Of a stretch of DNA of 64,000 bases, positions 25,682-55,905 are shown piece by piece. The notes beneath the pieces were generated by a model. It searched no databases. It worked only from the letters and a program-made list of their open reading frames with translations, and was not told the DNA's origin. Position numbers and translations under genes: made by a program. Numbering within the stretch: the stretch's first letter is position 1; every line of letters begins with the position of its first letter. Origin of the DNA: a virus. Where the stretch lies: the IMG/VR virus record IMGVR_UViG_3300035670_000069, positions 32,001 to 96,000 of that record, one strand, 5' to 3'.

Positions 25682-26292
25682 AATATGATGAAATAAATAC
25701 AGTAGTTGAGCAAGTTTTTACCAGTGATGAAATTAGTGATATCTATAAGGCAATAGAGAATAATGTTGGGGGAGACTTTGTAAAAGTACATTCTCAAGCC
25801 AATACATTTATTTCTTTACCAGAAAATATATTAAATAAGGTTAGAGATAAATCAAGAGAACTTTCAGGAAATAACAATTTAGAAATAACCGAATATTGTC
25901 ATGCAAGATATAACAATGTTACAAGTAATTGTGGACAGTTTCATTTTAAGCCATCCTTGTTCCCACACTATGATGAAACATTTAAGCAGCCTAGATTTAC
26001 TTTTGACTATCAACTTAATTCAAATATAGACTGGGCTTTAGTTGTTGAACCAGATAAAGAGTTTATCTTAAAAGATAACGAGGCTCTAACATTTAGCGGG
26101 ACACATCAAATACATTGGAGAAAACCTACACATTTTGAAGATGATCAATATGTAGAGATGTTATTCTTTCATTTATCTGATCCAAACTCTGGACCCAAGG
26201 GCGAGGATGTAAATAAAATTATGAATGAAAAAGCAAATTATTATAAAGAAATATTTTATGCAAATGGTGGATTTAGTAATTTGGATAAATAA
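25678..26292 (+). CDS. 2OG-Fe(II) oxygenase, array copy 3
   Basis: LFPHYD...TFDYQLNSNIDW...QIHWRK. Confidence 0.72.
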   Translation: MKYDEINTVVEQVFTSDEISDIYKAIENNVGGDFVKVHSQANTFISLPENILNKVRDKSRELSGNNNLEITEYCHARYNNVTSNCGQFHFKPSLFPHYDETFKQPRFTFDYQLNSNIDWALVVEPDKEFILKDNEALTFSGTHQIHWRKPTHFEDDQYVEMLFFHLSDPNSGPKGEDVNKIMNEKANYYKEIFYANGGFSNLDK

Positions 26293-26954: not shown

Positions 26955-27735
26955 ATTACACAAATACTTAACTGGGTTTGATCAATATAATAAGGATTTG
27001 CCATTTTATATTGATGATTTATTTTCAGAAGATCAGGCTACAAGAATTAAAAACTTGATAGAAAAAAATAGAAAAATTGAACCTTTTATAATTGGGGATA
27101 GAATTGAAGATGGTTATATTAGGACATCAACTTTTAGAAGTAGGTATCAGCCAAAAATTGCTAAAAATATGTCTAGAACATTGATTGAATTTGATATGCC
27201 AGAAGATTGTGAAAAACGACTAGATGAAATAGCAAAACCACTATATAAAGAAGATATAGCGCTATGTCATTGGAATTATATAGATTATAATTTAAAGTAT
27301 GGGTATGGAGACAACAGTCCAGCGCTTCCGCCACATTTAGATGCAGATGAAAATTTAGTAACAATAAATTATTGCCTTGACACTAATATAGAATGGGATT
27401 TGTATGTGGGGAACTGGAATGATACTGGGAATTTTACTAAATATACTTTGGGTGCAGGACAAACAATTGTATTTAGTGCTGTTAATCAAATTCACTGGAG
27501 ACCAAAACGTAAGTTTAAAGATGGTGAATTCTGTGAAATTATAAGCATGGATTATTGTAGACTAAGCAGTTATAGATTTACTGGAGAAAAAAATCCAATA
27601 GATCCAGAGCATTTTCCAGAAAAAAGAAAAGAATATTTGGATAAGTTACAGTCTAGGCCAGACATGATTTCTGCTTTTAATTTATGGAATTCCGAAGGAA
27701 TAAAAAATAACATACCTATAGAATCGATGGGATAA
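26947..27735 (+). CDS. 2OG-Fe(II) oxygenase, array copy 5
   Basis: LPPHLD...TINYCLDTNIEW...QIHWRP; likely TTG start 26947. Confidence 0.72.
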   Translation: MAELHKYLTGFDQYNKDLPFYIDDLFSEDQATRIKNLIEKNRKIEPFIIGDRIEDGYIRTSTFRSRYQPKIAKNMSRTLIEFDMPEDCEKRLDEIAKPLYKEDIALCHWNYIDYNLKYGYGDNSPALPPHLDADENLVTINYCLDTNIEWDLYVGNWNDTGNFTKYTLGAGQTIVFSAVNQIHWRPKRKFKDGEFCEIISMDYCRLSSYRFTGEKNPIDPEHFPEKRKEYLDKLQSRPDMISAFNLWNSEGIKNNIPIESMG

Positions 27736-34333: not shown

Positions 34334-34342
34334 TGTTATAAT
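34334..34342 (+). promoter_or_regulatory. extended -10 TGtTATAAT
   Basis: immediately after M23 stop. Confidence 0.55.
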
Positions 34343-36464
34343 GTCTTTGTATGGAAACATGCATTGGAGAAAGGAAATTAAACATAACTTATTTAGAATA
34401 ATTCTTTCAGTTATATTTGCGCTAGGGTGGACATTTTCAACGGCATCTCAAGCAGATTCTGACTCATTAATACAAGCGTATGAAGATATTCAACAACTAC
34501 AATCAGATATCAATAAATTAAATGACAAGGCAAAAACTCAAGAATTATTAGATATAGCAATAGATAAGTATAACTATGCAGTACAGTCAAAATATAACTT
34601 AGAAGAATCTGAACAAGAATATAATACGGCGGTAGAGCAGGAGTCCTTGGCATTAGAGGCTAAAACTCTTGCTCTATCTGCTGTAGATGGTCAAACAGTT
34701 ACTGTGGCTACCGCATTAGAAGATAAGGATCAAGCATTACAAGATAAAAATAATGCACAGGATCAACTTGATATTGCCAATATAAATCTTCAGACGACAC
34801 AATTGACAATTCAAAACTCAGGAAATCAAGGATGGCAATTTACAGCCTATACCCTTAACAGAAGTGGTGATTTTGCTTATGCTGGAACAGCATATTGTTC
34901 TGGTGTAATAACACAGGCATATCAAGGTATGCCAGTATGTGGCAGGTATGAAAACTTATTTGTGGTTTATTCTGGAAAAATAACAGCACCTGAAGGTGTT
35001 AACTTGGTTTCTTTTGCAGGGTATACGGATGATGGATTTAGAATGTATGTAGATGGTCAATTGGTTATTGATCAGTGGGTAGATCAAGGATCAACATGGA
35101 GTCCATATTATTATCATACCTTTACAGCCGAAGATAGGGTTATAGATGTAGTATTTCATTATTTTAATGGTGGGGGTCCAGGTGTATTTCATGTAGGATG
35201 GGGGCATAGTGGTATCTGGACTGGAGTAGCCTCAAGTGCAATGTCTTATGGACAAGGAGCAACACAGGCACAGATAGACGCATACAATCAGGCTGTATCA
35301 GATCAAGCCCAGGCACAACAAGACTATAACTCTATGGCTGAGATTTATAATAATAAACTATCTTATTACAATGAACAGAACTCTATATTATTAGCATACC
35401 AACAAACTCTTTCTGAGGCAGAAGCAAACCTAACACAGGCTCAAGAAAGCCTAACACTTGCATTAGAAAACCTTACACAAGATCAAAATGAATATGAGGT
35501 TTCAATACCAGACATGCAGCAAGCAATACTAAATGCTCAAACTGAGTATAACAAACAATGGCAATTTGAAGAAAATCAAAGGGTGGCTGCAGCAATTGCA
35601 CAGGCTATAGCAAACCAGCCACAACCAATGCCAGAGCCAGAACCAATCCCCACGCCAGAAGAAAGTACACAGCCAACTCCAGAGCCAACCCCAGAGACAG
35701 AGCCAGAACCTTCCATAGAGCCTTCACCAGAGCCTACCCCAAATCCTGAGCCATCGCCTGAGCAAACAGAACCAGATTTCCCCAATCCTCAGCCAACCGA
35801 TCAAACAGATGATGAATCATCCGTAACTCCAGACCCTGAGCCTGAGATATCTCCAGAGCCTCAGCCAGAGCCAACACCTCAGCAAACGGATATAGATCCT
35901 CTTCCCACTCCAAGTCCTCAACCAGAGAAATCTCCCGTAGCACCTTCTCCAAAACCATCACCACCTAATAATACCACCATTGACTTAACTAGCGTTATTG
36001 CTAACCTAACTAGCAAAGATAATATTATTGTTAAATTAACACCAGAACAAATGTCTGCTGTTGGTCAATCTTTGACTACCCTGGCTCCAGAGGCTAAGGT
36101 TGAACTAGCACAAGATCTTGGAGTAAAGACAAATGAGATAGCAATACTTGCAGAAGAAGCACAAGATAATCCTGCAGTCGCTGCTGCCATCGTAACATTT
36201 GCTGAAAAGGCAGAGGAAAACGCTGATGCTCCTATGCCATATACAATTGCAGACGCTATTACTGAGGCTGCTGCTGAGTTATTTTTAGAGGATCCCTTGG
36301 CGGTATTTAATAATATAGATTTAGAAGAATTATCTGACCCTACTCAATGGGGCAAAGATATGACAGATGATCAGAGAGAAAAGGCACAAGAGGTAATTGT
36401 TCCAGTTATTCTTGTTTCTAATATAATTTCTTCTGTGGCTTCTGCGTTAACAAGGAGGGTATAA
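34341..36464 (+). CDS. secreted coiled-coil / PA14 / Pro-rich protein
   Basis: signal-like segment, PA14 motifs TDDGFRMYVDG..VIDQW and FNGGGPG, PE/PT-rich stalk, hydrophobic C-terminus; start uncertain. Confidence 0.7.
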   Translation: MSLYGNMHWRKEIKHNLFRIILSVIFALGWTFSTASQADSDSLIQAYEDIQQLQSDINKLNDKAKTQELLDIAIDKYNYAVQSKYNLEESEQEYNTAVEQESLALEAKTLALSAVDGQTVTVATALEDKDQALQDKNNAQDQLDIANINLQTTQLTIQNSGNQGWQFTAYTLNRSGDFAYAGTAYCSGVITQAYQGMPVCGRYENLFVVYSGKITAPEGVNLVSFAGYTDDGFRMYVDGQLVIDQWVDQGSTWSPYYYHTFTAEDRVIDVVFHYFNGGGPGVFHVGWGHSGIWTGVASSAMSYGQGATQAQIDAYNQAVSDQAQAQQDYNSMAEIYNNKLSYYNEQNSILLAYQQTLSEAEANLTQAQESLTLALENLTQDQNEYEVSIPDMQQAILNAQTEYNKQWQFEENQRVAAAIAQAIANQPQPMPEPEPIPTPEESTQPTPEPTPETEPEPSIEPSPEPTPNPEPSPEQTEPDFPNPQPTDQTDDESSVTPDPEPEISPEPQPEPTPQQTDIDPLPTPSPQPEKSPVAPSPKPSPPNNTTIDLTSVIANLTSKDNIIVKLTPEQMSAVGQSLTTLAPEAKVELAQDLGVKTNEIAILAEEAQDNPAVAAAIVTFAEKAEENADAPMPYTIADAITEAAAELFLEDPLAVFNNIDLEELSDPTQWGKDMTDDQREKAQEVIVPVILVSNIISSVASALTRRV
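35615..35965 (+). repeat. low-complexity PEP/PTP/PSP repeats
   Basis: repeated ccagagcc units. Confidence 0.75.
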
Positions 36465-38098: not shown

Positions 38099-38632
38099 AT
38101 GACTTGCATTGCGGTAGTTCGTGATAAAGTAAATAATAAAATTTGGATGGCTGGAGATCGTGGTGTCTCTGATGATAATACGATTAATGTTTGTTCTAGT
38201 CCAAAGATATGGAAAAAAGAAGGATACCTTTTTGGCTATGCTGGCTCAATGGACGGGGACAGAATAAAGCACTTATTCGTACCCCCACAACCAGAACCTA
38301 GAGTAAACATAGATAAGTTTATGTATAGTAAATTTCTTAAAGCCCTTAGAACATTTTACGAAAATTGGTGGGTAGATACTTCCACATCGTCAGATTTTGG
38401 AATGATTATATGCATTAAAGGAAAAATATACGAGCACAATGCTGGAGACATGTCTTTGACTCAATATGAACAAGACTATTTAGCAATGGGTTCTGGCGGA
38501 GATTTGGCTTTAGGATCTTTATACTCTACACAAAAACAAAAAGATTCTAGAAAAAGGGCGGTACTTGCTGTAAATGCTGCAATAAATCATTCAACAACCT
38601 GTAAGGGTCCTATTGACATATTAAGTATTTAG
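38099..38632 (+). CDS. HslV/proteasome-like Ntn-hydrolase
   Basis: N-terminal Thr (MTCIAV), AGDR, KI, GYAG, AMGSGGDLALG. Confidence 0.8.
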   Translation: MTCIAVVRDKVNNKIWMAGDRGVSDDNTINVCSSPKIWKKEGYLFGYAGSMDGDRIKHLFVPPQPEPRVNIDKFMYSKFLKALRTFYENWWVDTSTSSDFGMIICIKGKIYEHNAGDMSLTQYEQDYLAMGSGGDLALGSLYSTQKQKDSRKRAVLAVNAAINHSTTCKGPIDILSI

Positions 38633-40776: not shown

Positions 40777-41457
40777 ATGAAAAATCCTAAAATGCTTCAT
40801 GACATGAATTATAATTTTAATATATGGTATGAAACAAATGATCCAATTTTTTCTGATATTAGTTTAAATTCTAGATTACCCGCAAAGTGGGTTGAATTTA
40901 AATATGTTGAAAATTACAAAGATTCTATAATTAAACCGATAAATAAATATGTTGAAGCATTATATCCACCACCCAAATTAATATCAATAGAAGGAAATAA
41001 CATTAGATTAAGGCAAGGGAATCATGCGGAATTTTTCTTGTTAACTAATCCAGATGGATCTTTTTATAATTTAGATAGACCATGGATGAGACAATATTAC
41101 AATACATCTCATCAAATACAAGAGCCAGATGACTGTTTCCCTGGGACTTATATTTTTTATACACCATGGTATGTAGACGCTAACGTAAAGGTATTTTATG
41201 AAAAGCCAGAAAAAGAAACCACCTTTTTTGTTTATAGCAATGTGTCAATTCATAAAGAGTTTAATGACAGTGATACATATCTAGAACCAGATTTTATAAG
41301 GTTTCATTTTAAAAAAGAAGGAGATCATATGGATAGACCAGGATTTGGCAAAATACCTAGGCAAAGTCCAATGTTTGATATTGTTTTTGAATGCGATGAT
41401 ATAATGTTAAATAGAGTAAAGGAGTTTTATGAACAAGATAAAGTTTTATCCTTTTAA
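40777..41457 (+). CDS. hypothetical, distant relative of the next two genes
   Basis: GKIPRQSPMFDIVF resembles GxIKxGTPxxQxxPF; TATAAT 6 nt before ATG. Confidence 0.55.
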   Translation: MKNPKMLHDMNYNFNIWYETNDPIFSDISLNSRLPAKWVEFKYVENYKDSIIKPINKYVEALYPPPKLISIEGNNIRLRQGNHAEFFLLTNPDGSFYNLDRPWMRQYYNTSHQIQEPDDCFPGTYIFYTPWYVDANVKVFYEKPEKETTFFVYSNVSIHKEFNDSDTYLEPDFIRFHFKKEGDHMDRPGFGKIPRQSPMFDIVFECDDIMLNRVKEFYEQDKVLSF

Positions 41458-42157
41458 TAATAAAACGATAGAATTTGCACCAAGTCCGTATCCAGCATCA
41501 AAAAATATACCAGATTGGTATAAAAAGCAACCAGGAAATGTTCCAGAAAAAGAACAATTTTCAATGATGAACGGGGCAAGCACTTCTACAATAAAAAGAT
41601 GTATGCCTATTTTTGATATAATGACTGCTGGCTATATTATACCAATTCCATGCGATATATACATAGATGCTACAAATCCAGAAAAAATAACTTGGTCAGT
41701 TCCACTTGGAGTTAAAATTTTTGGATCCGATATGGTGTCTCATCATTCTAGAGAACAATACTCTCATTATCCAATTAATACTGATAAATATCATAAAGAC
41801 CTGTTTAGAATAATGCCATTCTGGTCTGTAAAAACAGAAGAAGGCTATAGTTCTTTATTTATAAACCCAATACACAAAGATGAAGTACCATTTTGGACCT
41901 TTGGTGGATTAATAGATACCGATAAGTTTATAACTGATGGACATATATCAATGTTGATTGAAAAAGACTTTAAGGGTGTAATTAAACAGGGTACACCATT
42001 TGTTCAGGTAATTCCTTTTAAAAGAGAAGAGTGGGAAATGGAAACCATTAGCCCAGATGATGCACAAAAAGAAGTTGTTAAGCAAAGATTAAGCCTTAGA
42101 AGTGTATTTGTAAATGGTTATAAAAATAAAATGAGAACAAAAAAAGTATGGAACTAG
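41429..42157 (+). CDS. DUF6065-like (dUTPase-like fold possible) protein
   Basis: PDWYK, TIKRCMPIFD..TAGY, GLIDTD, IKQGTPFVQVIPFKRE. Confidence 0.6.
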   Translation: MNKIKFYPFNNKTIEFAPSPYPASKNIPDWYKKQPGNVPEKEQFSMMNGASTSTIKRCMPIFDIMTAGYIIPIPCDIYIDATNPEKITWSVPLGVKIFGSDMVSHHSREQYSHYPINTDKYHKDLFRIMPFWSVKTEEGYSSLFINPIHKDEVPFWTFGGLIDTDKFITDGHISMLIEKDFKGVIKQGTPFVQVIPFKREEWEMETISPDDAQKEVVKQRLSLRSVFVNGYKNKMRTKKVWN

Positions 42158-42918
42158 CAAACAAGATATCTTTTATTCCAGCATTCACTGGACATTCTGG
42201 ACTATTAACTCCTCCAATGCCAGCAACAAAAAATGTGCCAGAATGGTATAAAAGTTTGGCCAAATTTGATAAATCTAATGATGACATAACTTTAGGAGTT
42301 AAGAATAGTATAGGAACTGACGGCGCCCTAGTTTCTACTAAAATGTGTATGCCATTTTTTGATGCATTAACTGGAGGGTATCATTATGTTTTAGAAGATG
42401 ATGTTCATGTCGATTTAGATAAAAACGGTAAACCGATTCTCACCTGGGATGGAAACGTAATGATGGTTGATAAAAGACCAATCATAGACATTCCAGTTCC
42501 AGACAACTGCCACCCAGTTCACTATGGCTGGAGAATGAATTGGTATTATGAAACTCCGCCAGGATATTCTGTTTTAATTACACATCCAATGAATAGATAC
42601 GACCTACCATTTTATACAATGTCTGGTATTGTAGAGTCAGATATTTGGGGACTCCCCGTTTTCACGGCATTTTTCTTAAAAAGAAACTTTATAGGCACAA
42701 TTAAAAAAGGCACTCCAATATTTCAAATATTTCCTTTTAAAAGAGAATCTTGGGAGTTAGAAGAAAAGGAAACAGAGCATGATCTAGATAGACACGAACT
42801 CATGGCTGAAAATAGAAGGTCAAGGCTATATGGATATTATAAACAAACAGCGTGGCGCAAAAAAATATTTGGTGTAAGTGGCAAAAATAATAAAGAGATT
42901 AATCATGACGATGAATAA
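42148..42918 (+). CDS. DUF6065-like paralogue
   Basis: PEWYK, TKMCMPFFDALTGGY, GIVESD, IKKGTPIFQIFPFKRE. Confidence 0.6.
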   Translation: MELANKISFIPAFTGHSGLLTPPMPATKNVPEWYKSLAKFDKSNDDITLGVKNSIGTDGALVSTKMCMPFFDALTGGYHYVLEDDVHVDLDKNGKPILTWDGNVMMVDKRPIIDIPVPDNCHPVHYGWRMNWYYETPPGYSVLITHPMNRYDLPFYTMSGIVESDIWGLPVFTAFFLKRNFIGTIKKGTPIFQIFPFKRESWELEEKETEHDLDRHELMAENRRSRLYGYYKQTAWRKKIFGVSGKNNKEINHDDE

Positions 42919-43765
42919 TGTTTTAGTTTGCATTTATTCCTATAAAGGAAAATATTTAAAAGATGTTGTATATCAGTTAAGGGAAACTCAAAGTAATAAT
43001 AATAATATAAAAGTTGTTATTTGGGATCAAAATCCCTTAGATAGATCAAAATTTTTTCCTGATGAAAATTATAATCATGTTTTATGGGATCAAATAATTA
43101 GTCCATCTGTTTATAAAAATTTATGCATTAAAGATAATTTTGATTATATCTTATTTATATCTGATGAAATTTTATTAAATGAAAGTTGGGATGAAAAATT
43201 AATTAATTTAATTAAAGATAAAGATATAGTTTTATCTGGAAATAAAAAAATAAAAATAAAATCAAAAAATTTATTTTATCTAGACAAAGAATATTTTGAA
43301 AATATTGAAGAGTTGTCCCTAACAAACTTTATAGATAGATCTTTTGTTTTTGCATCAAAAGATATTATAAATAAAATAAAGTTTCCAGAATATATAAAAT
43401 ATCATGGAGAAGAAGAAATTCTTTCATTAAAAATTTTTTCTAAAAAAATAAATGTATATTCTGTTTCACAAGAAATATACTCTAAGCATTTTGAAAATAG
43501 TTTTATTTCAAAATATGTACCATTTTCTTTAGATCATAACTATAATGATGCAATAGACCTTCTTAGGCATGGCTATAATAGATGGGAAAATTTAGGGATG
43601 GGTAAAAAAATATGTGAGGAATTTTCTCAGTTTCATGATTTTAATTTTAAACAAATAGAATATTTACCATTTTTAAAGAATGACGTAGAATATGACCCCT
43701 ATATGCTTAATTTTGACAGGGTAGACTCAAGAAGATTTGTGGCTAGGACAAAGGCTATACACTAG
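42911..43765 (+). CDS. GT-A glycosyltransferase, GT60/Gnt1-like
   Basis: VCIYSYK, DYILFISD...WDEKLI, FVFA, YHGEEEILSL...NVY; start 42905 or 42911. Confidence 0.55.
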   Translation: MNNVLVCIYSYKGKYLKDVVYQLRETQSNNNNIKVVIWDQNPLDRSKFFPDENYNHVLWDQIISPSVYKNLCIKDNFDYILFISDEILLNESWDEKLINLIKDKDIVLSGNKKIKIKSKNLFYLDKEYFENIEELSLTNFIDRSFVFASKDIINKIKFPEYIKYHGEEEILSLKIFSKKINVYSVSQEIYSKHFENSFISKYVPFSLDHNYNDAIDLLRHGYNRWENLGMGKKICEEFSQFHDFNFKQIEYLPFLKNDVEYDPYMLNFDRVDSRRFVARTKAIH

Positions 43766-43790
43766 TGTATAATATAAAGAGGAGGAATAT

Positions 43791-44468
43791 ATGAATGAAG
43801 TAAAACCAGTAGAACCACTAAGTAATGAAACATGGCACGGACATAAAATTTTCATAGTTAAAAATTTTATAGACCCACAAGATGCAGAATTATTAATTCA
43901 AGAAATGAGAAATCCAAGCGAACAAAACGAATATCCATCATATTATAAAGATAGATATGGCGGAACTTCTCTTCCATATAATAAAAAAGTAATGGATATA
44001 ATGATTAAGTATGGACACAAATCTAACGAAATGCATAAAAAAATAAATGGATTTGTTAATGATATTTATGTTTTTAAAGGATTTGGCTCCTGGTGGACAA
44101 CTGGTACTAAGGGGGACCTACATATTGATGCACAAGGACCAGAACCCTGGATTGAATGGAGCACTATTATGTATTTAAATGGTGATGAAAACCCTGGGGA
44201 AGAATTAGAAACTAGAGAAGATTACAAGTTTACTGGGGGTCAGATATATTTTCCAAATCAAAACTTTGTATATAGCCCACGAAGATATTCTGCTGTATTT
44301 TTTCAAAGTGCTGGAACGGAATATATACATGGAATAACTAAAGTAAAAAGTGGAAATAGATATACTGCGCTATATATGCATACGAGTTTACCAGATCATG
44401 CAGATCCAGATTTTCACCCTGGTCCGTTGCAATGGAAAGCAAGGAATTATCCATTAAACTATGTTTGA
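43791..44468 (+). CDS. 2OG-Fe(II) oxygenase, prolyl-4-hydroxylase-like
   Basis: IFIVKNFI, LHID, STIMYLN, GGQIYF, HGITKVKSGNRYT. Confidence 0.85.
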   Translation: MNEVKPVEPLSNETWHGHKIFIVKNFIDPQDAELLIQEMRNPSEQNEYPSYYKDRYGGTSLPYNKKVMDIMIKYGHKSNEMHKKINGFVNDIYVFKGFGSWWTTGTKGDLHIDAQGPEPWIEWSTIMYLNGDENPGEELETREDYKFTGGQIYFPNQNFVYSPRRYSAVFFQSAGTEYIHGITKVKSGNRYTALYMHTSLPDHADPDFHPGPLQWKARNYPLNYV

Positions 44469-45123
44469 TTATGAAGTCTTAGATTTAGGATTAGTATATT
44501 ACAAAAATATACTAAAAAATCCAAACTCTTTAATTGAAAAAATTGAAGAATTAGACGCCAGATGGCATAAAGATTCCCCTAAACCATATGAAACTAGTGT
44601 AAAGCCATGGGTGCCGTGGAAAAATGATAATGGATCTGAAGAGATATTTAATTATCAAAAATTTATTCCACAGGTAAAACATATAGCCCCTTGGGATAAA
44701 TATAAAGAAGAGCAAACTCTTATCTCGTCTGAATTATTTGGAGCATTAGATGTAACTTTAGAACATTATTCCACAGAACTTTATCCTTTTGCAAAAAAAA
44801 ATATTAAATCAAGAGAGGCAACAATGCATCTTTTGAGATATGATAAAACAGGTCATTTGCCAGCACACCAAGATCAAGGGGTAAGCACAAGGGTGTTGTC
44901 TGTATTATTATATTTAAATGATAACTACGATGGCGGAGAGATTGAGTTTAGACACTCTAATGTAAAAATTAAGCCTGAGCCTGGTAGTGTTTTATTTTTT
45001 CCTTCTAATTTCTTATATGTTCATGAAGTCTATCCAGTAACTAAGGGACCAAGATATGCTTTGCCAAATTGGTACCATAATGTTGCTGGAGATGAGTTTA
45101 GAAATTCTACGGGGCAAGAATGA
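44461..45123 (+). CDS. 2OG-Fe(II) oxygenase, prolyl-4-hydroxylase-like
   Basis: HQD, SVLLYLNDNYDGGEIEF, HEVYPVTKGPRYA. Confidence 0.88.
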   Translation: MFDYEVLDLGLVYYKNILKNPNSLIEKIEELDARWHKDSPKPYETSVKPWVPWKNDNGSEEIFNYQKFIPQVKHIAPWDKYKEEQTLISSELFGALDVTLEHYSTELYPFAKKNIKSREATMHLLRYDKTGHLPAHQDQGVSTRVLSVLLYLNDNYDGGEIEFRHSNVKIKPEPGSVLFFPSNFLYVHEVYPVTKGPRYALPNWYHNVAGDEFRNSTGQE

Positions 45124-46553
45124 AAATTTTAGGAATTAACGAAACAACACACGATGCATCAATATCCTTAATAGAAAATGGGAACATATTGTTTGCTGGA
45201 CATGCAGAAAGATATAGTAAGAAAAAAAATGATTGGTTCACTAATAATGAACTTATTGATGAGGCTTTGAGTTATGGAAAACCAGATAGAATAGCCTATT
45301 ATGAAAATAGATGGCTAAAAAAATCTAGAATTGTTACCCGTGGTGGATTTGGTGGAGGTAAGCCATACTATTTAGAAAGAAAAGATCTCAGGTGGATTCC
45401 TAGAGAATCTTTTAGCCATCATCACTCTCATGCAGCAGCAGGCTATTACACTAGCAAATTTGATGATGCGGTGGTTGTTGTGCTTGATGCAATTGGTGAA
45501 TACAACACTTCAACAATTTGGATAGGCGAGGGAAGTAATTTAAAAAGAGTATACGCAAAAAATTATCCATTTAGTTTTGGATTATTTTATTCTGCATTTA
45601 CACAATTAGTAGGGTTAAAGCCAAATGAAGAAGAATACATTTTTATGGGAATGGCAGCGTATGGAGATTGGACAAAGTTTTACCTTACAGTAAAAAAATA
45701 TTTTCCAGATATTAATACTCAAAAATATAATTTTCATAAAGGTATAAGGGACTGGGGCCTGATAACAGAACAAGATAAATTTGATATTGCAGCAGCAGTT
45801 CAAAAAGTATATGAAGAAAGATTAGTTAATTTTATGGCTATGGCCAAACAAATAACTGGTAAAAGAAATCTTGTTTTTATGGGTGGGTGTGCTCTTAATT
45901 GTGCAGCAAATACAATGCTCTGGAGGATGTTTGATGATGTCTGGATTATGCCAAACCCAGGAGATGCTGGATCGTCTCTAGGAGCGGCTGCTGCAGCCTA
46001 TGGAGAGCATTTAAAATGGGAGCATCCATATCTTGGCCATGATTTAGGCGGGGAATATCCAGTAAAATCTATTATGACAGAATTAATCAGAAATAAAATT
46101 GCTGCAGTAGCAACAGGAAGAGCAGAATATGGGCCAAGGGCACTGGGAAATAGAAGTATACTAGCAGATCCAAGAGATCCCAACATTAAAGATAAGGTTA
46201 ATTTAATTAAAAAAAGAGAAATGTTTAGGCCATTTGCCCCAGTAATATTAGAGGAGCATGCAGGAAAATGGTTTGATATGAAATATACATCACCATATAT
46301 GCAATATACTCCAAAATGTTTAAAGCCTGATTTAATACCATCAGTGGTTCACAAAGACGGCACCTCTAGAGTTCAAACAGTAAATAAAAATCAGCATCCA
46401 GGACTTTACAATTTGCTTTCAGAGTGGTATGCTATAACAGGTGTTCCTATATTATTAAATACCAGCCTAAATATTAAGGGACAGCCACTTTTAAATGATC
46501 AAGAAGATATTAAAAATTGGGAAGGCCTATATGGAACCAGAATCATATCCTGA
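45120..46553 (+). CDS. O-carbamoyltransferase (NodU/CmcH family)
   Basis: HDAS...ERYS, HHHSHAA, DAIGE, GGCALNC, GDAG, EYGPRALGNRS, RPFAP, DGTSRVQ, NTSLN. Confidence 0.95.
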   Translation: MKILGINETTHDASISLIENGNILFAGHAERYSKKKNDWFTNNELIDEALSYGKPDRIAYYENRWLKKSRIVTRGGFGGGKPYYLERKDLRWIPRESFSHHHSHAAAGYYTSKFDDAVVVVLDAIGEYNTSTIWIGEGSNLKRVYAKNYPFSFGLFYSAFTQLVGLKPNEEEYIFMGMAAYGDWTKFYLTVKKYFPDINTQKYNFHKGIRDWGLITEQDKFDIAAAVQKVYEERLVNFMAMAKQITGKRNLVFMGGCALNCAANTMLWRMFDDVWIMPNPGDAGSSLGAAAAAYGEHLKWEHPYLGHDLGGEYPVKSIMTELIRNKIAAVATGRAEYGPRALGNRSILADPRDPNIKDKVNLIKKREMFRPFAPVILEEHAGKWFDMKYTSPYMQYTPKCLKPDLIPSVVHKDGTSRVQTVNKNQHPGLYNLLSEWYAITGVPILLNTSLNIKGQPLLNDQEDIKNWEGLYGTRIIS

Positions 46554-47469
46554 TAGGGGAACTATTTGGGACAATTGGGAAATAACCATTGATTCTATTT
46601 ATAGTACATCCGAAAAAATGGTAAAAAAAATAGGAAATCCTAAATCTATATTTGATGACAATACAAAAAGTTTATTTGAATATAAACTAAATTCACATGG
46701 ATTTAGATCTAATGAATTTGTTGAAAATAATAAAAATCCACAAATACTTTTTGCGGGATGTTCAGAAACTTTTGGACAGGGAGATACTTTAGAAAATTCT
46801 TGGCCTGAAATGTTTTTCAAAATGTTTGAAAATCATAAAAGTGGATATGAAGTATATAATTTGAGTGTACCAGGACATGGATTTCAATTAATAATAAATT
46901 CAGTTTTACAATATATTAAAAAATTTGGCACACCAGAATATATTTTTATATTATTCCCTGATTTTCAAAGAGAAATTATTTGGCAGTATAAAGATAAAAA
47001 TAAAAAAAGTTTTTCGCCTCTTGGGGCAGAAGAGGATTTTAAAAATGGAAATTGGACACTTGTCCATCAAAGGTTAATAGATAAAAGAAAAAAAGATTTT
47101 TCATTTTTTCTTGCAGGAACTGATATAGAGATAGATCCATTAAATTCTTTTTCTTTTTTTTATTCATGTATATTGTTTTTGGACCTGTTAGAAGAATTAT
47201 GCATGGCAAAAAATATAAAGTTATTTTGGACGACTTGGGATAGCCTTACTGATTATGTTATTCGAACATTAAAATTAAAAAATGAGAATTTATTTAAAAA
47301 CTATTTTAATTTATTAAATTATGATGAAAAAGATGTTTTAGAAATAATAAATACCGATCCTAAAAAATACAATCTTAAGAAAGAAGATGGACATAAGGGG
47401 TCTGCAATTCATTATTTATGGGCCAAGGCCTTTTATGATGAATTAATAAGTAAGGATGCTATAATATAA
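46531..47469 (+). CDS. SGNH/GDSL-like protein
   Basis: NSHGFRS.EF, FAGCSETFGQG, NLSVPG, DGH; likely start 46531. Confidence 0.55.
   Translation: MEPESYPDRGTIWDNWEITIDSIYSTSEKMVKKIGNPKSIFDDNTKSLFEYKLNSHGFRSNEFVENNKNPQILFAGCSETFGQGDTLENSWPEMFFKMFENHKSGYEVYNLSVPGHGFQLIINSVLQYIKKFGTPEYIFILFPDFQREIIWQYKDKNKKSFSPLGAEEDFKNGNWTLVHQRLIDKRKKDFSFFLAGTDIEIDPLNSFSFFYSCILFLDLLEELCMAKNIKLFWTTWDSLTDYVIRTLKLKNENLFKNYFNLLNYDEKDVLEIINTDPKKYNLKKEDGHKGSAIHYLWAKAFYDELISKDAII
47457..47465 (+). promoter_or_regulatory. extended -10 TGcTATAAT
   Basis: followed by SD aaggagg and ATG 47482. Confidence 0.65.
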
Positions 47470-48255: not shown

Positions 48256-48773
48256 TTATTCAAATGTTTGGCATGGACGTATCTACAAGAGAAAAGGTTG
48301 GTAGAGAAATTGCTAAAAGATTAGATGCTTGGTATCTCGATAGTAGAGATCTCCCCATGGGACACACACAGCCACAACAGGCCAGATGGCTTCGTGTTGT
48401 TGCAAAAGCATTTGACAGAAACTATCATGGAGATATAATTACAAGCGGATACTTTGCTACTGCTGAGGCAAGAGAACAATATAGGATAGAGCCAGGAAGA
48501 CAAATTCCAGATTTTTCTGTTTTTATAGATACTATACCCCATGATCAATTCCATACAATACCTGGATATCTAGAAAGAAAAATACAATTAGTTGATAGCC
48601 ATTCAGAAAATGAAATGCAGGAATTAAGTTATTGGGAAGAAACATTAGAAAGCGACTATGATATTCGTATAACAGAAAATAATGGTATATATGAAATGGC
48701 CACCTTTATTATTGATAAATATCAAGAAAAAATGAAAAACTATAAGGTGGAATATAAATATGAGCAAGGCTAA
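48252..48773 (+). CDS. degenerate P-loop kinase-like protein
   Basis: layout like APS/gluconate kinases but Walker A reads GMDVSTREK. Confidence 0.45.
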   Translation: MIIQMFGMDVSTREKVGREIAKRLDAWYLDSRDLPMGHTQPQQARWLRVVAKAFDRNYHGDIITSGYFATAEAREQYRIEPGRQIPDFSVFIDTIPHDQFHTIPGYLERKIQLVDSHSENEMQELSYWEETLESDYDIRITENNGIYEMATFIIDKYQEKMKNYKVEYKYEQG

Positions 48774-49329
48774 AGAAAGTTTTAATTTTATATTCCATGG
48801 CAATTTTAATATAAGTCCAATAGTTGAGCATTTAAAAAAATATAATTCAGAATGGTTTTTAAATACAACAAGGCAAGATGCTTTTGGAGTTCATAAATAT
48901 ACCAATTCTATTTTTATATATGATCATGACGCAAATTGGAAAAAAAATACTAAATATTCTATAGAAAAAGCAACAAATGATGAAGATATGTTAAATCTTA
49001 TAAGTCCAATAATTAAAGTTTTAGAAGAAAAGCACAATGGTAAAGTTGGAAAAGTCTTATTTATAAGACTATCTTCGTCAAAAAATATTGATAAGCATGT
49101 AGATGTTGGCGATTATTTGGAATCTATAAGAAGGCATCATGTTCCAATTATTACAAATGATAATGTTTCTTTTGTTGTAGGTAATGAAACAAAAACTATG
49201 CGTATAGGTGAAATTTGGGAGGTAAATAACAATAAAATGCATGAAGTATTAAACGCTGGAGATGATGAAAGAGTACATCTCTTAATTGACATTATCCCAA
49301 ATAATTATATTGGAGAAGACAATGTATGA
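48760..49329 (+). CDS. aspartyl/asparaginyl beta-hydroxylase-like oxygenase
   Basis: IDKHVD, RHHVPIITN, GEIWEVNN..MHEVLN.GDDERVHLLID. Confidence 0.85.
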   Translation: MSKAKESFNFIFHGNFNISPIVEHLKKYNSEWFLNTTRQDAFGVHKYTNSIFIYDHDANWKKNTKYSIEKATNDEDMLNLISPIIKVLEEKHNGKVGKVLFIRLSSSKNIDKHVDVGDYLESIRRHHVPIITNDNVSFVVGNETKTMRIGEIWEVNNNKMHEVLNAGDDERVHLLIDIIPNNYIGEDNV

Positions 49330-51042: not shown

Positions 51043-51322
51043 ACTTAAATGGAAAGACAACGCATCATGTATAGATTACGATACAAATATATTTTTTGAA
51101 AAGTATGAAGACGATGAAGGTTTAAGGCCAGCAATAGACAATCTTTGTCAGGCCTGCCCCGTAGTAAAAACATGTTTTGCTGTAGGAGTTTCTAGTAAAG
51201 AATGGGGCGTTTGGGGAGGGGTCTACCTTGAAAGTGGAAATATTTCAAAAGAATATAACTCTCATAAAAAAGATTCAGATTGGTCAAACATTTGGCAAAT
51301 TTTAACATTGGATAGAGATTAA
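51035..51322 (+). CDS. whiB: WhiB-family transcription factor
   Basis: W...ASC..FF..C..CPV...C...EWGVWGG; start ATG 51035. Confidence 0.9.
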   Translation: MHKLKWKDNASCIDYDTNIFFEKYEDDEGLRPAIDNLCQACPVVKTCFAVGVSSKEWGVWGGVYLESGNISKEYNSHKKDSDWSNIWQILTLDRD

Positions 51323-52227
51323 TGTTTGTGCTTGGAACAGAACAGGAACCATCAAAATTTTTTGGAACCTATAAAATATCTGTAGAAAAAAGTAATCAAC
51401 TTAATTTTACAAAAATTTCAGATGATAAAAATGAAATTGAAAATTTAGTTATTATACTTAATAGTAGATTTTATCATACAATGATCGAAGTATTAGGTAC
51501 AATTTTAAATATTTATGAAAAAAATAATCAATTTCATTTTAATATAATAATGACAAAATTTGAACAATATTATGATTCTCCACATACAAAATTTTTATTT
51601 AAAATATTAAAAGATAATAACATTAATTATACAATTTATGATGAAAGAAATAATAATAAAGAAATTATTGTTAGTAACTTTATTTATTATGGAAATTTTA
51701 TAAGGATTAATGATAATGCAATAAACAATATATATAAGTATTGTTTGCCATATGTAAAGCAAAAAAAATATGCTGCAGACAATAAGGTTTATTTAAGCAG
51801 GAAAAAAACAACATATCAAACTGGGGAGCCAATACTTGGCTTTGATAAAAACAAATACGCCTCTTTACCATTTAAAGATGACCTGAGAGTTGACAACGAA
51901 GAAATTTTAGAAGAATATTTTAAAAATAAAAAATATAAAATTGTATATCCTGAAGATTTTGATAACTTTGAAGATCAAATAAATTATTTCTATAATGTAA
52001 AAAATCTTGTATCTTTGAGTGGTGCGGGGCTAACTAATCAATGCCTTATGCAGCCAGGGGCCAATGTTGTAGAAATATCAACGCCTTTGATGGTTATGGG
52101 TGAAACCGAATTACATACTTTATATTTTTGTATGGCATGGGCAAAGGACCATAACTACTACTCTATTCCCAGTTTAAGAAAGTCCAAAGAAATAATAAAC
52201 AGGTTAGAAAGGTCTGGGATAATATAA
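51322..52227 (+). CDS. GT61/DUF563-like glycosyltransferase, copy 1
   Basis: FYH, KVYLSR, PEDF..FEDQI, GAGLTN..MQPG..VVE. Confidence 0.75.
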   Translation: MFVLGTEQEPSKFFGTYKISVEKSNQLNFTKISDDKNEIENLVIILNSRFYHTMIEVLGTILNIYEKNNQFHFNIIMTKFEQYYDSPHTKFLFKILKDNNINYTIYDERNNNKEIIVSNFIYYGNFIRINDNAINNIYKYCLPYVKQKKYAADNKVYLSRKKTTYQTGEPILGFDKNKYASLPFKDDLRVDNEEILEEYFKNKKYKIVYPEDFDNFEDQINYFYNVKNLVSLSGAGLTNQCLMQPGANVVEISTPLMVMGETELHTLYFCMAWAKDHNYYSIPSLRKSKEIINRLERSGII

Positions 52228-52229
52228 TT

Positions 52230-53204
52230 ATGACATTAAAATTTAACGATGACGATAGATATCCAACTAAAAACAATGGATTTCATTCTATAGAATTAAA
52301 CACATTAGATGTACACAAAAGACTTTCGCCAAAACTATTACAAGAAACCGAAATTATTAGTTTAAAAAATATAATAAATATTGATACAGACAATAAAGAA
52401 ATATACTATGTTGAATTACAAGATTCATTCTTTCATTTTTTATTAGAGGACATGTCAAATATATTGTATAATTTTAATTTAAATAAAGACATTGTCTTTA
52501 TTCTTAATGCACACAATGTCTTAACATCTAATCAACCGCAGGTACCATGGCTTTTAAAATTATTTAAATTTTTAGATATTAATTTTATCTTATTAAATTT
52601 TGAAAAAGGTAAAAATTTAATAATAAAAGACTTTTATTCAACGAATAACGATAGCCTATATTATGATCATGTGGATAATTTTTATCATATTATACAAAGA
52701 TATAAAGACAGGTATGGATTAATAAATCATGTTGGTCCATATAGAAAAGTTTATTTGAGTAGAAAAAAAATATCAGACAAAAGTAAACAGATTATGTTTA
52801 GTAACAATAATCCAGATAACTATAATTTTCAAGATGATATTCGTGTTGACAATGAAGAAAAAATAGAACAATATTTTAGTAATTTTGGATTTGAAATTAT
52901 TTATCCCGAAGAGTTTCATAATTTTGATGATCAAATAGACTATTTTGATACTGTAAAAACTCTTGTTTCTTTAACGAGTGCTGGACTGAGTAATGCTTTG
53001 TTTATGAGGCCAGGACAAATGCTAGTAGAGTTATCCGTTCCATTAATTGTTGACGGCAGAGAATCTATTCACACTCACTATCAAGGGCTATCTTTTGCAA
53101 AAAACCATCGATATATATCAATTCCAAGCATGAGAAATTCTGATGATATAATTGGACATATAGAAAATAACCTAAAACTAAAAGAGTTGATATCAAATGG
53201 ATAA
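52230..53204 (+). CDS. GT61/DUF563-like glycosyltransferase, copy 2
   Basis: FFHFLLE, KVYLSR, DQI, SAGLSNALFMRPG..LVE. Confidence 0.75.
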   Translation: MTLKFNDDDRYPTKNNGFHSIELNTLDVHKRLSPKLLQETEIISLKNIINIDTDNKEIYYVELQDSFFHFLLEDMSNILYNFNLNKDIVFILNAHNVLTSNQPQVPWLLKLFKFLDINFILLNFEKGKNLIIKDFYSTNNDSLYYDHVDNFYHIIQRYKDRYGLINHVGPYRKVYLSRKKISDKSKQIMFSNNNPDNYNFQDDIRVDNEEKIEQYFSNFGFEIIYPEEFHNFDDQIDYFDTVKTLVSLTSAGLSNALFMRPGQMLVELSVPLIVDGRESIHTHYQGLSFAKNHRYISIPSMRNSDDIIGHIENNLKLKELISNG

Positions 53205-54558
53205 ATTAATTATTTTTGATTTAGATGGAGTATTAATTGATAGTAAAACTTTACACTTTGATGCATTTAATTTAGCATTAAAAGAAGCAGATCCATCTTA
53301 TGTTATATCAAAAGAAGATCATAAAAATATTTATGAAGGTCTTCCAACTACCGAAAAATTAAAAATTTTAACAATCCAAAAAAATCTTCCAGAGTCAATG
53401 TATCAAAAAATTTGGGATATTAAACAAAAGCATACAATGAAAATGCTTGAAGATATTTCTGAAGATCAAGAATTAAAGACAATAATTAGTTTTATAAAAG
53501 AAAATAATTTTAAAGTTGCAGTTGCAAGCAACAGCATAAAAGAAACTATTATAACTGTATTAAAAAAAATAGGAATTTTTAACGATATAGATTTTATAGT
53601 TGGAAATGAAGATGTTTTGCATCCCAAGCCACACCCAGAAATGTATTGGAAGTGCATGTCTTATTTTAATACGGTGCCAGATAGCACTATAATTTTTGAA
53701 GATAGCGTTGTTGGCAAAGTTGCTGTTTATAATAGTAAAGCAAAATTAGTTCACGTAGAAAATAGAAAAGATTTAACGCTTAAAAAAGTTTCTGATTCAA
53801 TTGAAACTATTAAAAATAGCCCAATTTCTATAATTGATAAAACAATAAACATACTTATTCCAATGGCTGGTGCTGGCAGTCGTTTTGCTGATGCTGGATA
53901 TTCGTTTCCAAAACCCCTAATTGATATCAATGGGAAAACAATGATTGAACTAGTTGTTAAAAATTTAGGAATTAAGGGAAATTACATTTTTTTAGTACAA
54001 AAAGAACATTACAACAAATATAACTTACAAGAAACTTTAGAATTAATTTCCCCTAATTGTAAAATTGTTCAGGTGGACTCATTAACAGAAGGTGCAGCCT
54101 GCACCTCACTATTAGCAAAAAATTTAATTGATAATGACAATCCGCTTATTATTGCAAATTCAGATCAGTATGTGGAGTGGGATAATAGGGAATTTTTATA
54201 TAATAGTTTAATAAAAAATACCGACGGATCAATTTTATTATTTAAATCATCACATCCGAAATGGTCTTATGCAAAACTAAATGATTTTGGGCTTGTGTCA
54301 GAGGTAGCAGAAAAAAAACCAATTAGCGATAACGCAACTGTTGGTATTTATTTTTGGTCTAAAGGATCAGACTATGTCAAATATGCAGAACAGATGATAA
54401 ATAAAGATATTAGAACAAATAATGAATTTTATATTTGCCCCGTTTATAACGAAGCCATTGAAGATGGTAAAAAAATTGGATCATTTTTTGCAAATGCAAT
54501 GTGGGGACTTGGCACTCCTGAAGATTTAAATTTATTTTTAAGGAACAAAAATGATTAA
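53197..54558 (+). CDS. HAD phosphatase fused to nucleotidyltransferase
   Basis: FDLDGVL, ASNS, KPHP, FEDS; then IPMAGAGSRF..PKPLI, NSDQ, EKKPIS, GLGTPEDL. Confidence 0.88.
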   Translation: MDKLIIFDLDGVLIDSKTLHFDAFNLALKEADPSYVISKEDHKNIYEGLPTTEKLKILTIQKNLPESMYQKIWDIKQKHTMKMLEDISEDQELKTIISFIKENNFKVAVASNSIKETIITVLKKIGIFNDIDFIVGNEDVLHPKPHPEMYWKCMSYFNTVPDSTIIFEDSVVGKVAVYNSKAKLVHVENRKDLTLKKVSDSIETIKNSPISIIDKTINILIPMAGAGSRFADAGYSFPKPLIDINGKTMIELVVKNLGIKGNYIFLVQKEHYNKYNLQETLELISPNCKIVQVDSLTEGAACTSLLAKNLIDNDNPLIIANSDQYVEWDNREFLYNSLIKNTDGSILLFKSSHPKWSYAKLNDFGLVSEVAEKKPISDNATVGIYFWSKGSDYVKYAEQMINKDIRTNNEFYICPVYNEAIEDGKKIGSFFANAMWGLGTPEDLNLFLRNKND

Positions 54559-54991
54559 AATTTCTCATAGAGGCAACCTGCATGGTCCTAATCTTAATGA
54601 CGAAAACAATCCAGACTATATCTATGAAGCCATTAAGTCTGGGTATAATGTCGAAATTGATTTTTGGGTAGTTGATCGTAACTTATATTTTGGACACGAA
54701 GAGCCTACCTATAAGGTTAATGATTATTTTTTACATTATAATATAAAAAACATATGGCTTCATTGTAAAAATTTAGAAGCATTAGATTTTGTTTTGACAG
54801 TGCCAAAATATTATAAAGCATTTTGGCATCAGGAAGACTCTTACACAATAACAACTAATAACTATATATGGACATATCCTGGAATGCCAGTCACCGATAA
54901 AAGTATTTTGGTGCATAAGGATATGCCAACAAAGGATGTTTTATCTTTAAATATGGCTGGGATTTGTAGTGACTATATAGGCAAAATATGA
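54551..54991 (+). CDS. GDPD/PLC-like phosphodiesterase
   Basis: ISHRGN, EN, VEID, GH, HCKN, GICSD. Confidence 0.75.
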   Translation: MIKISHRGNLHGPNLNDENNPDYIYEAIKSGYNVEIDFWVVDRNLYFGHEEPTYKVNDYFLHYNIKNIWLHCKNLEALDFVLTVPKYYKAFWHQEDSYTITTNNYIWTYPGMPVTDKSILVHKDMPTKDVLSLNMAGICSDYIGKI

Positions 54992-55905
54992 TTTTTTACG
55001 ATAATACTACTGAAGGTAAGTTTTATCAAGGAATTTATAAATTAACTAATTCTGGAAACTCTTTGGTTGTAGAAAAATCTAACCTAATTGTTAACGGGGT
55101 TTTTACAGAAAAAAACAAACCGAAAGTTTTCTTATTTATTAAGGATAGATTTTATCACCAAATAGTAGAAACATTTGCAATAATTTTATTTTCTATAAAG
55201 GAAGATCCAGATACAATTTTTATATTAGATTTAACCCAACAGCCTAGACTAAACGAATTAGACTTTTTGTTTAAATATTTAGATGAAAACAATATCAAAT
55301 ACTACATAACTAATTTAAGAAAAAGTGGTCCCCTATATGTTTCTGATTTTAAAACATACATAAACTATCAAATTCATAAAAAATGTGTAGATGTCTTATA
55401 CGAAATGTCTCAAAAGTTTGTCAAGAATCATAAACCATTTCGAAAGGTATATATTAGTAGGGCAAAAACCATTAATCATAGCGAAATAGCAATGTTTGGT
55501 CCAAATAATGATTCGTCTAAATTTAATTTTAACAATGATATAAGGCTAGATAATGATAAAAAAATGGAATCTTATTTTTCATCTTTGGGCTTTGAAATTA
55601 TTTATCCAGAAGACTTTTTAAATTTTAATGATCAATTAATATTTTTTAATGAAGTAAAAATAATTGCAGGGGTTACCAATGCTGGCCTTTTGAATTCTAT
55701 ATTTATGCAGCCAGGGGGAATTGTATTAGAATTAACTGTCCCATTGATAGTGTATGGAACAGAAAAAATTCATCATCAATACAAAGGACTTGCAGATGTT
55801 AAGGAGCACATGTATTTATCATTATTTAGTATGAGAAAAGTCGATGATTTTATTGACAAAATAGAAAATAATAAAATGATAAAAGAATTGCTTTTAAGTA
55901 GTTAG
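54988..55905 (+). CDS. GT61/DUF563-like glycosyltransferase, copy 3
   Basis: FYH, KVYISR, DQL, NAGLLNSIFMQPG..VLE. Confidence 0.75.
   Translation: MIFYDNTTEGKFYQGIYKLTNSGNSLVVEKSNLIVNGVFTEKNKPKVFLFIKDRFYHQIVETFAIILFSIKEDPDTIFILDLTQQPRLNELDFLFKYLDENNIKYYITNLRKSGPLYVSDFKTYINYQIHKKCVDVLYEMSQKFVKNHKPFRKVYISRAKTINHSEIAMFGPNNDSSKFNFNNDIRLDNDKKMESYFSSLGFEIIYPEDFLNFNDQLIFFNEVKIIAGVTNAGLLNSIFMQPGGIVLELTVPLIVYGTEKIHHQYKGLADVKEHMYLSLFSMRKVDDFIDKIENNKMIKELLLSS

Follow-up and report, generated by a model that had tools for sequence, protein, structure and literature searches.

What does a virus make with a run of eight mostly overlapping genes that brings a glycosyltransferase and two oxygenases together with a carbamoyltransferase and three proteins of a dUTPase-fold family? 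The genes occupy positions 40777–47469 of the window, a stretch of 64,000 nucleotides that corresponds to bases 32001–96000 of the 108,556-bp IMG/VR virus record IMGVR_UViG_3300035670_000069 (completeness rating 100%). Since the genome encodes a terminase, a replicative helicase, a primase, a Pol III-alpha-like polymerase, a UvsX-like recombinase, a single-stranded DNA-binding protein (SSB) and an endolysin, it is that of a large tailed phage, uncultured and from freshwater. An initial annotation of this DNA had read the genes as a candidate pathway that hydroxylates, glycosylates and carbamoylates proteins in the manner of the Skp1 pathway of Dictyostelium and Toxoplasma. In our judgement, there is an even chance that they do form one tailoring cassette for protein hydroxylation, then O-glycosylation, then carbamoylation. 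This reading is carried by the family relationships of the glycosyltransferase, the intact catalytic residues of both oxygenases, the conserved linkage of the genes and the existence of natural glycosyltransferase-oxygenase fusions.

The interval is filled by eight open reading frames (ORFs), which are real and co-directional:

A, 40777–41457, + strand: 226 aa, divergent paralogue of B and C from a dUTPase-fold family; lacks the acidic GxxDxD motif
B, 41429–42157, + strand: 242 aa, phrog_7084 / DUF6065-like, with a G-L-I-D-T-D motif
C, 42148–42918, + strand: 256 aa, phrog_7084 / DUF6065-like with a dUTPase-like fold; best conserved gene of the cassette
GT, 42911–43765, + strand: 284 aa (ATG at 42911), soluble GT-A glycosyltransferase, distant relative of PF11397 (GT60-type)
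Ox1, 43791–44468, + strand: 225 aa, prolyl 4-hydroxylase (P4H)-type Fe(II)/2-oxoglutarate (2OG) oxygenase with H111-x-D113, H180 and R190
Ox2, 44461–45123, + strand: 220 aa, P4H-type Fe(II)/2OG oxygenase with H136-x-D138, H188 and R198
CT, 45120–46553, + strand: 477 aa, NodU/CmcH/TobZ-type O-carbamoyltransferase; accessory
S, 46531–47469, + strand: 312 aa, SGNH/GDSL-like, with G-C-S-x-T and D-G-H motifs; variable accessory gene

These coordinates agree with the earlier description of eight contiguous, mostly overlapping genes, and all eight lie on the + strand. Successive genes overlap by 29, 10 and 8 nt (A/B, B/C and C/GT) and then by 8, 4 and 23 nt (Ox1/Ox2, Ox2/CT and CT/S), and the sole intergenic gap, between GT and Ox1, measures 25 nt. 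The start-to-stop overlap of the genes suggests translational coupling. The GC content of the cassette region (0.29–0.35) lies inside the range of approximately 29–42% seen over 2-kb windows, and a promoter and terminator scan gave counts no higher than chance. A, Ox1 and S matched no Pfam family in a scan of Pfam and PHROGs, and no obvious membrane segment is present in any of the eight translations.

Glycosyltransferase, oxygenases and their natural fusions

GT has a GT-A fold and is homologous to the PF11397/GT60 family over its full length. The initial annotation had made a GT60-type call for this gene, and profile comparison bears it out: hhalign aligns the GT family with P0214, a bona fide PF11397 protein (306 aa, 164 bits), over 247 columns (98.1%, E 1.2e-13). 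An exhaustive profile search of 1.84 billion representatives returned 451 relatives, the distant ones being bona fide PF11397 proteins, and the profile matches proteins with multiple PF11397 domains at 3e-23. Among 30 GT relatives, 25 match PF11397 (E <0.1, best 2e-7) and 12 match GT2; a precomputed PF11397 label is attached to 13 of 65 relatives. The sequence YHGEEEILSL is present in GT, its GEE is conserved across the family, and HGEE is common to GT and P0214. The segment GEE-x-x-S-x-[KR] resembles the Gal/GalNAc-T motif of GT27 enzymes.

The AF2 model of GT, built from 30 relatives (pLDDT 87, pTM 0.85), places the protein near the GT27 enzymes. Foldseek ranks GalNAc-T2 first (E 4e-11), and VIA-align puts 29 GT27 polypeptide GalNAc-transferase entries on top (Z 20.6–17.3). 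The best of these (Z 20.6) superimposes with a root-mean-square deviation (rmsd) of 2.8 Å over 238 residues, at an identity of 10–13%. The next families are chondroitin/heparosan synthases, BcsA and SpsA (Z ≤16.3); other GT-A enzymes reach Z 15–16, and the GT domain of LH3 reaches Z 14.7. There is no GT60 entry among the structure matches. A search of PDB sequences with the GT profile gave no match at E up to 10. The many invariant residues of the family argue against a dead enzyme. GT60 comprises the Skp1 hydroxyproline (Hyp) N-acetylglucosamine (GlcNAc)-transferase Gnt1 and a polypeptide GlcNAc-transferase of T. cruzi, and its characterised enzymes glycosylate polypeptide Hyp or Thr (PMC6939170).

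Ox1 and Ox2 are homologous to each other (hhalign, 99.6%), and the claim of two P4H-like oxygenases holds for both, their closest relatives being prolyl 4- and 3-hydroxylases. Ox2 matches PF13640 at 7.6e-19 (68.9 bits, cut-off 27). The best matches of its profile are the prolyl 4-hydroxylase of B. anthracis (1.1e-9) and prolyl 3-hydroxylase 1 (P3H1; 1.1e-8), followed in order by PKHD/PiuC hydroxylases, PBCV-1-type P4H, PHD2, LH3 (E 0.004) and Tet-like dioxygenases (0.03). The Ox1 profile matches P3H1 (2.4e-7) and the B. anthracis P4H (2e-4). H111, D113, H180 and R190 are invariant in the Ox1 family, as are H136, D138 and H188 in the Ox2 family, where R198 is nearly invariant (≥90%). Judged by sequence, both are prolyl-hydroxylase-type enzymes in which the residues for iron and 2OG are intact, and a peptidyl proline is a possible substrate. 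Elsewhere in the window, five tandem paralogues lie at 24409–27735, four of which (25025–27735) weakly match phrog_2954; this family is labelled ferrochelatase and is probably 2OG-oxygenase-like despite the label.

Four distant matches of the GT profile are giant metagenomic proteins (P0183, P0187, P0190 and P0202; 1,297–1,928 aa), each of which combines five to eight PF11397 matches (493–889 bits) with a C-terminal 2OG-FeII_Oxy_3 domain. The oxygenase domain of P0190 aligns with Ox2 (hhalign, 97.3%, E 2.5e-11, 33% identity), with the HxD, H and R residues in register. One of the four additionally carries an AhpC/TSA peroxiredoxin domain. Such natural fusions of PF11397 and P4H-like domains support, independently of synteny, a probable functional coupling of the adjacent phage GT and oxygenase genes.

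Conservation of the cassette and its accessory genes

GT has 65 relatives in a collection of 5.8 billion proteins, and 57 loci were confirmed in IMG/VR. We scored gene presence at these 57 loci by tblastn with the window proteins. The order A-B-C-GT-Ox1-Ox2 is seen in nearly all of these related viral contigs, GT being present in 57, B and C in 54 each, A in 53, Ox1 in 51 and Ox2 in 50. The proposed linkage across phages is thus conserved, also at loci with differing flanks. Where GT identity is down to 31–34%, the A-B-C trio and GT are kept amid other neighbours: Mtd_N and fn3 tail-fibre-like genes precede the cassette, and the gene after it is a class II ribonucleotide reductase in one case, with a short-chain dehydrogenase (SDR) gene and a ConA-like lectin gene in another. 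No similarity was found between p38648 and the fn3 fibre protein of one such locus (L049). In cultured phages, the cassette gave no megablast match, and GT gave no tblastn match in 50,697 phage records.

Two divergent relatives have one or two paralogous ORFs of ∼220 aa between C and GT (L049:6665–7989 and L043:7357–8001). These contain W-H-D-H...F-H-G-Y-Y...G-H-P-H motifs and match no Pfam family; they may represent another type of metal-dependent oxygenase. As homologues of Ox1 or Ox2 they were rejected, since hhalign finds them unrelated.

The flanks of the cassette are also shared by most of the 57 loci and consist of an HslV-like gene, an endolysin gene and small ORFs, and part of the linkage is therefore inherited synteny. 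In the window, the HslV-like peptidase homologue (phrog_1040, 1.5e-20) lies at 38099–38632, to the left of the cassette as in most relatives. Shared flanks are what would be expected if there were no single pathway at all, and the locus were a hyperplastic island of oxygenases, GT, CT and dUTPase-fold proteins that act independently and are adjacent by shared phage ancestry. It also fits this view that CT and S come, go and shift position, that the genome has many other oxygenase paralogues, and that B/C-like genes occur without GT amid P4H-like arrays or beside tetratricopeptide repeat (TPR) genes in alphaproteobacterial chromosomes (see below). However, the unit of A-B-C and GT persists with other flanks at the low GT identities given above, the genes overlap from start to stop, and the PF11397-oxygenase fusions show joint action of GT and oxygenase elsewhere. 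We therefore consider an island of independent genes decidedly unlikely.

The carbamoyltransferase and the SGNH-like gene, which the initial annotation counted among the steps of the pathway, are present here and are accessory rather than core. CT occurs at 41 of the 57 loci, at times shifted upstream or set between Ox1 and Ox2, and S occurs at only 14, in varying positions. The description of CT as a full carbamoyltransferase is correct: Carbam_trans_C (2.3e-52, 177.4 bits) and Carbam_trans_N (3.6e-39, 135.6 bits) are both present, and the protein aligns over its full length with NovN (2.9e-55), GdmN and TobZ. The metal-binding histidines and the YrdC-like domain are conserved, with H-H-H-S-H-A-A of CT falling on the H-H-x-A-H-A motif of NovN and GdmN. 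The closest homologue in a cultured phage is found in Ralstonia phage RsoM2USA (118482–130026, 44.6% identity). There, three DUF6071 genes and a radical-SAM-like gene come before it and DHFR comes after; all of them are annotated as hypothetical, and this neighbourhood does not inform the cassette.

S has few relatives. Its profile matches GDSL/TesA chains only, and weakly (best E 0.006); in this weak alignment G-C-S falls on block I (GDS) and D-G-H on block V (DGxH), and G76, C77, S78 and H288 are invariant. The claim of an SGNH-like gene has weak support from these motifs and this match, and S may tentatively be called an SGNH-like esterase or acyltransferase.

With CT and S, the cassette could also be read as one that builds or decorates not a protein but a polysaccharide, a glycolipid or a nucleoside-like metabolite of the infected cell, perhaps jointly with the GT61/HAD-nucleotidyltransferase cassette that lies 4 kb downstream. 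NodU/TobZ/NovN/GdmN homologues carbamoylate sugars and natural products, and SGNH enzymes commonly O-acylate or de-acylate glycans. The GT model also resembles polysaccharide synthases (Z 15–16), a second glycan-type cassette is nearby, and one divergent locus adds a short-chain dehydrogenase/epimerase-type gene. Nevertheless, the closest sequence family (PF11397) and the closest fold (GT27) of GT are those of polypeptide transferases, the oxygenases are closest to protein prolyl hydroxylases, an obvious membrane segment was seen in no cassette protein, and CT and S, which are the most glycan-typical parts, are dispensable. Glycan, envelope or small-molecule tailoring is quite unlikely in our view.

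The dUTPase-fold trio

The initial annotation listed A, B and C as three DUF6065-like genes. B and C are clear paralogues (hhalign, E 1.8e-80) that match phrog_7084 (1.3e-49 and 5e-30, respectively), and A is a remote relative (hhalign with C, 90%, E 1.5e-6). The family kinship is thus upheld, whereas the DUF6065 cut-off is missed: C scores 22.4 bits against PF19541 (cut-off 26.6), and A and B do not match it. Among 42 relatives of B and C, 26 match DUF6065 (E <0.1, best 1.5e-5). We found no literature on DUF6065, and a protein atlas search with C returned unnamed viral clusters only.

The fold is dUTPase-like. When the AF2 model of C (pLDDT 80) is compared with 48,161 PDB chains by VIA-align, the top 22 are all dUTPases or dCTP deaminases (Z 9.4–5.6), followed by values of 5.1 and below 4. 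Foldseek likewise lists dUTPases and dCTP deaminases first in the PDB; in BFVD, viral dUTPases come after a set of uncharacterised phage proteins. A cupin or oxygenase fold for DUF6065-like proteins was rejected, since cupins reach Z ∼3.5 compared with 9.4 for dUTPases. A bromodomain match to the B/C family profile among PDB sequences (E 0.003) is spurious, and there was no other. At the sequence level, the alignment of the C family with E. coli Dut is weak (hhalign, 24% probability). It places G-I-V-[D/E]-S-D of C on G-L-I-D-S-D-Y of motif III and G-T-P-I-x-Q on G-E-R-I-A-Q of motif IV, with motif II missing. Dut motifs I, II and V are not recognisable in C, motif III lacks a conserved ribose-excluding Tyr, and PF00692 (dUTPase) has no match anywhere in the genome at E up to 10.

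We predicted the structure of the A+B+C complex, in which A as partner scores 0.68, compared with 0.00 for the best of three controls. Of 80 solved complexes, 58 score this high, as do 2 of 110 mismatched pairs; these counts apply only approximately to a prediction with custom alignments and three chains. Contacts agree between runs to at least 81%, partner pLDDT is 84 or higher, and confident contacts are between A and C only. The model supports a contact in which the C-terminal segment of C (residues 214–227, with the conserved E-N-R-R-S) would lie on conserved residues of A; this predicted arm recalls the arm exchange of trimeric dUTPases.

B/C-like genes also occur away from GT. On four contigs of metagenome-assembled genomes (MAGs; L073, L075, L077 and L079), which are probably phage, they are surrounded by P4H-like oxygenase genes, up to eight in an array, and no GT is present. 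On an alphaproteobacterial MAG chromosome (L083:4966–10310), three DUF6065-like genes alternate with three divergently oriented TPR genes of ∼285 aa, an arrangement that is a repeated two-gene unit. In these contexts, the B/C family is found time and again with P4H-type oxygenases or with protein-binding repeats. In cultured phages, tblastn with C finds only lone homologues, in haloarchaeal tailed viruses, whose context is uninformative.

The fold of C, with its motif III- and IV-like residues, is the main reason for leaving some weight on DNA or nucleotide hypermodification. In such a scheme, the trio would reshape the deoxynucleoside triphosphate (dNTP) pool, an oxygenase would make a hydroxymethyl pyrimidine (e.g., 5-hydroxymethyluracil from thymine), GT would glycosylate it (as in base J or glucosyl-hydroxymethylcytosine), and CT would carbamoylate the base or the sugar. 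One phage enzyme of the NodU family carbamoylates 5-hydroxymethylcytosine (5hmC) in DNA, RNA and dNTPs (PMC8670742), and thymine dioxygenases and DNA glycosyltransferases exist in phages (PMC13229309). Additionally, the SSB gene is directly upstream of the cassette, and the trio or a homologue adjoins ribonucleotide reductase in divergent loci and haloviruses.

The rest of the genome argues otherwise. No thymidylate-synthase/hydroxymethylase homologue (PF00303) is present in any of six genomes (this one and five relatives, 92–100% complete), and ThyX, a C5-methyltransferase and a canonical dUTPase were not found in this genome. Tet_JBP (PF12851) reaches at best 20.2 bits here and ≤22.5 bits in the five relatives, compared with a cut-off of 34.9, and these sub-threshold signals fall on P4H-like genes. 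The oxygenase profile favours prolyl hydroxylases over Tet-like chains by approximately 7 orders of magnitude. In the study of phage carbamoyltransferases, those that modify DNA co-occur with thymidylate-synthase homologues, and those on unmodified contigs adjoin unrelated genes, e.g., group 1 glycosyltransferases and tRNA threonylcarbamoyltransferase domains (PMC8670742). That GT lacks a tblastn match among the phage records searched also counts against this scheme. We regard hypermodification of DNA or nucleotides as unlikely.

Candidate substrates, proposed steps and known systems

If proteins are tailored, as we prefer to think, the neighbourhood offers candidates for the acceptor. One candidate substrate or adhesin is the 707-aa product of the gene at 34341–36464, 4.3 kb upstream of the cassette. 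Its N-terminus is signal-like and its C-terminus hydrophobic; it also has two coiled-coil regions, matches PA14 weakly (E 2e-4) and carries a P/T/S/E-rich stalk of ∼115 aa built from PEP/TPE/SPE repeats. In many close relatives, too, a similar stalk is encoded within a few kb of the cassette on its upstream side, an association that is not independent of synteny. Outside the window, at 81–800 of the genome, a 239-aa protein has 14 collagen-like G-X-Y repeats with Pro and Lys in the Y position (including GPQ four times, GVP, GPR, GDK, GKD, GER and GPK), ahead of a globular C-terminal domain; the protein is probably a fibre and may be a hydroxylase substrate.

Downstream of the cassette, a gene for a 189-aa member of the Asp/Asn beta-hydroxylase family (48760–49329; PF05118, 6.3e-16) follows after 1.3 kb and is shared by few relatives only. 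Approximately 4 kb downstream, at 51322–55905, three GT61 genes (PF04577, ∼1e-14 each) surround a fusion of a HAD hydrolase and a nucleotidyltransferase-like domain, which looks like a second glycan cassette. Characterised members of the Asp/Asn beta-hydroxylase and GT61 families mostly modify proteins. The neighbourhood is consistent with a phage that devotes genes to the tailoring of proteins or glycans, and does not by itself identify the acceptor.

On the reading we favour, the cassette would be co-transcribed and would act on a protein in the cytoplasm of the infected cell. Ox1 and Ox2 would hydroxylate a side chain, most likely that of a proline in a Pro-rich or collagen-like segment, and GT would then attach a sugar, either at the new hydroxyl or at a Ser or Thr close by. 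Where present, CT would O-carbamoylate the sugar with carbamoyl phosphate and ATP, and S would add or remove an O-acyl group. A, B and C may assemble into a hetero-oligomer, whose part in the pathway would be to handle nucleotides or nucleotide-sugars or to act as an adaptor. We hold a more specific version to be doubtful: in it, a family of freshwater phages would encode a complete O2/2OG-dependent protein glycosylation system, with Pro (or Lys) hydroxylation, GT60-like N-acetylhexosamine transfer and O-carbamoylation of the sugar on a virion fibre or adhesin-like protein. The helper would be a previously unrecognised heterotrimeric factor of the dUTPase fold, which would also work with P4H-like oxygenases in other phages and with TPR proteins in bacteria.

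Several points weigh against protein tailoring. The comparison of GT with PF11397 yielded the profile homology described above; the window GT itself, however, scores 16.8 bits (E 0.005), below the Pfam gathering cut-off of 21. The suspicion that the DxH motif is degenerate (ISDE) proved right: D-S-H of P0214 falls on S-D-E of the window GT, and in the family, which has x-D-[N/E/D/S/H] at this site, D85 alone is invariant. PF13640 oxygenases are abundant in aquatic phages, and this genome has 7 PF13640 domains. Most of the loci come from syntenic relatives, and inheritance of gene order could account for much of the linkage. A dUTPase-like trio suggests a link with nucleotides, and the Skp1 paradigm has no place for it. 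The apparent signal peptide and membrane anchor of the stalk protein complicate a cytoplasmic modification. So far, only one phage carbamoyltransferase of the NodU type has been characterised, and its substrate is 5hmC in DNA (PMC8670742). Finally, family resemblance does not fix the acceptor. On balance, the Skp1-like logic of hydroxylation followed by glycosylation is supported in part, by the GT60 and P4H homologies, the linkage and the fusions; it does not explain the trio.

If protein tailoring is the true function, hydroxylation-dependent O-glycosylation, which is known from protist Skp1 oxygen sensing and from collagen biology, would also exist in bacteriophages. Its output would be tied to O2, 2-oxoglutarate and carbamoyl phosphate and hence to the metabolic state of the host. 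Aquatic phages are very rich in P4H-type oxygenases and NodU-type carbamoyltransferases, some of which would gain a first testable function. The phrog_7084 / DUF6065-like proteins, which are widespread in phages, haloarchaeal viruses and bacteria, would make up a new branch of the dUTPase fold, to all appearances a hetero-oligomeric one.

C shares with trimeric dUTPases and dCTP deaminases the fold, the G-[IL]-[IV]-[DE]-[ST]-D and G-x-P-I-x-Q motifs and a predicted C-terminal arm onto a neighbouring subunit; it differs from trimeric dUTPases in an N-terminal extension of ∼100 aa, in the occurrence of three paralogues instead of a homotrimer and in the lack of a Pfam dUTPase match. The phage 5hmC system also employs a phage-encoded O-carbamoyltransferase of the NodU/TobZ family (Yang et al. 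2021, eLife, PMC8670742). It needs a thymidylate-synthase-like dCMP hydroxymethylase and nucleotide-pool enzymes, none of which was found in 6/6 genomes here.

GT27 enzymes of mucin-type O-glycosylation provide all top 29 structural matches of GT, which differs from them in having no lectin domain, no membrane anchor and no verifiable metal site of DxH and a distal His. Virus-encoded tailoring is familiar from mycobacteriophage virion glycosylation and from collagen hydroxylation and glycosylation by the LH3-like protein L230 of Mimivirus; the enzymes of those systems glycosylate structural proteins of the virus itself, and the mycobacteriophage case is cited in the literature searched. Different GT families are used there, although the GT domain (Z 14.7) and the oxygenase domain (E 0.004) of LH3 are among the matches of the cassette. 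We know of no case of phage protein glycosylation with a hydroxylase or carbamoylation step, and the literature searched contained none either. Nor did it contain a description of a hydroxylase-GT-carbamoyltransferase system of this kind in phages.

The Skp1 pathway of Dictyostelium and Toxoplasma, with PhyA and Gnt1, is a close parallel. The cassette differs from it in that its genes are those of a phage, its GT is half the typical PF11397 size and lacks DxH, and its oxygenases are two. It adds the carbamoyltransferase, the SGNH-like gene and the dUTPase-fold trio, and it has neither the extension enzymes PgtA and AgtA/Gat1 nor a known Skp1-like target. What the two have in common is a soluble P4H-type oxygenase together with a soluble GT-A enzyme of the HGEE-containing PF11397/GT60 type, and the logic of hydroxylating first and glycosylating afterwards fits the cassette (PMC6939170, PMC3515798).

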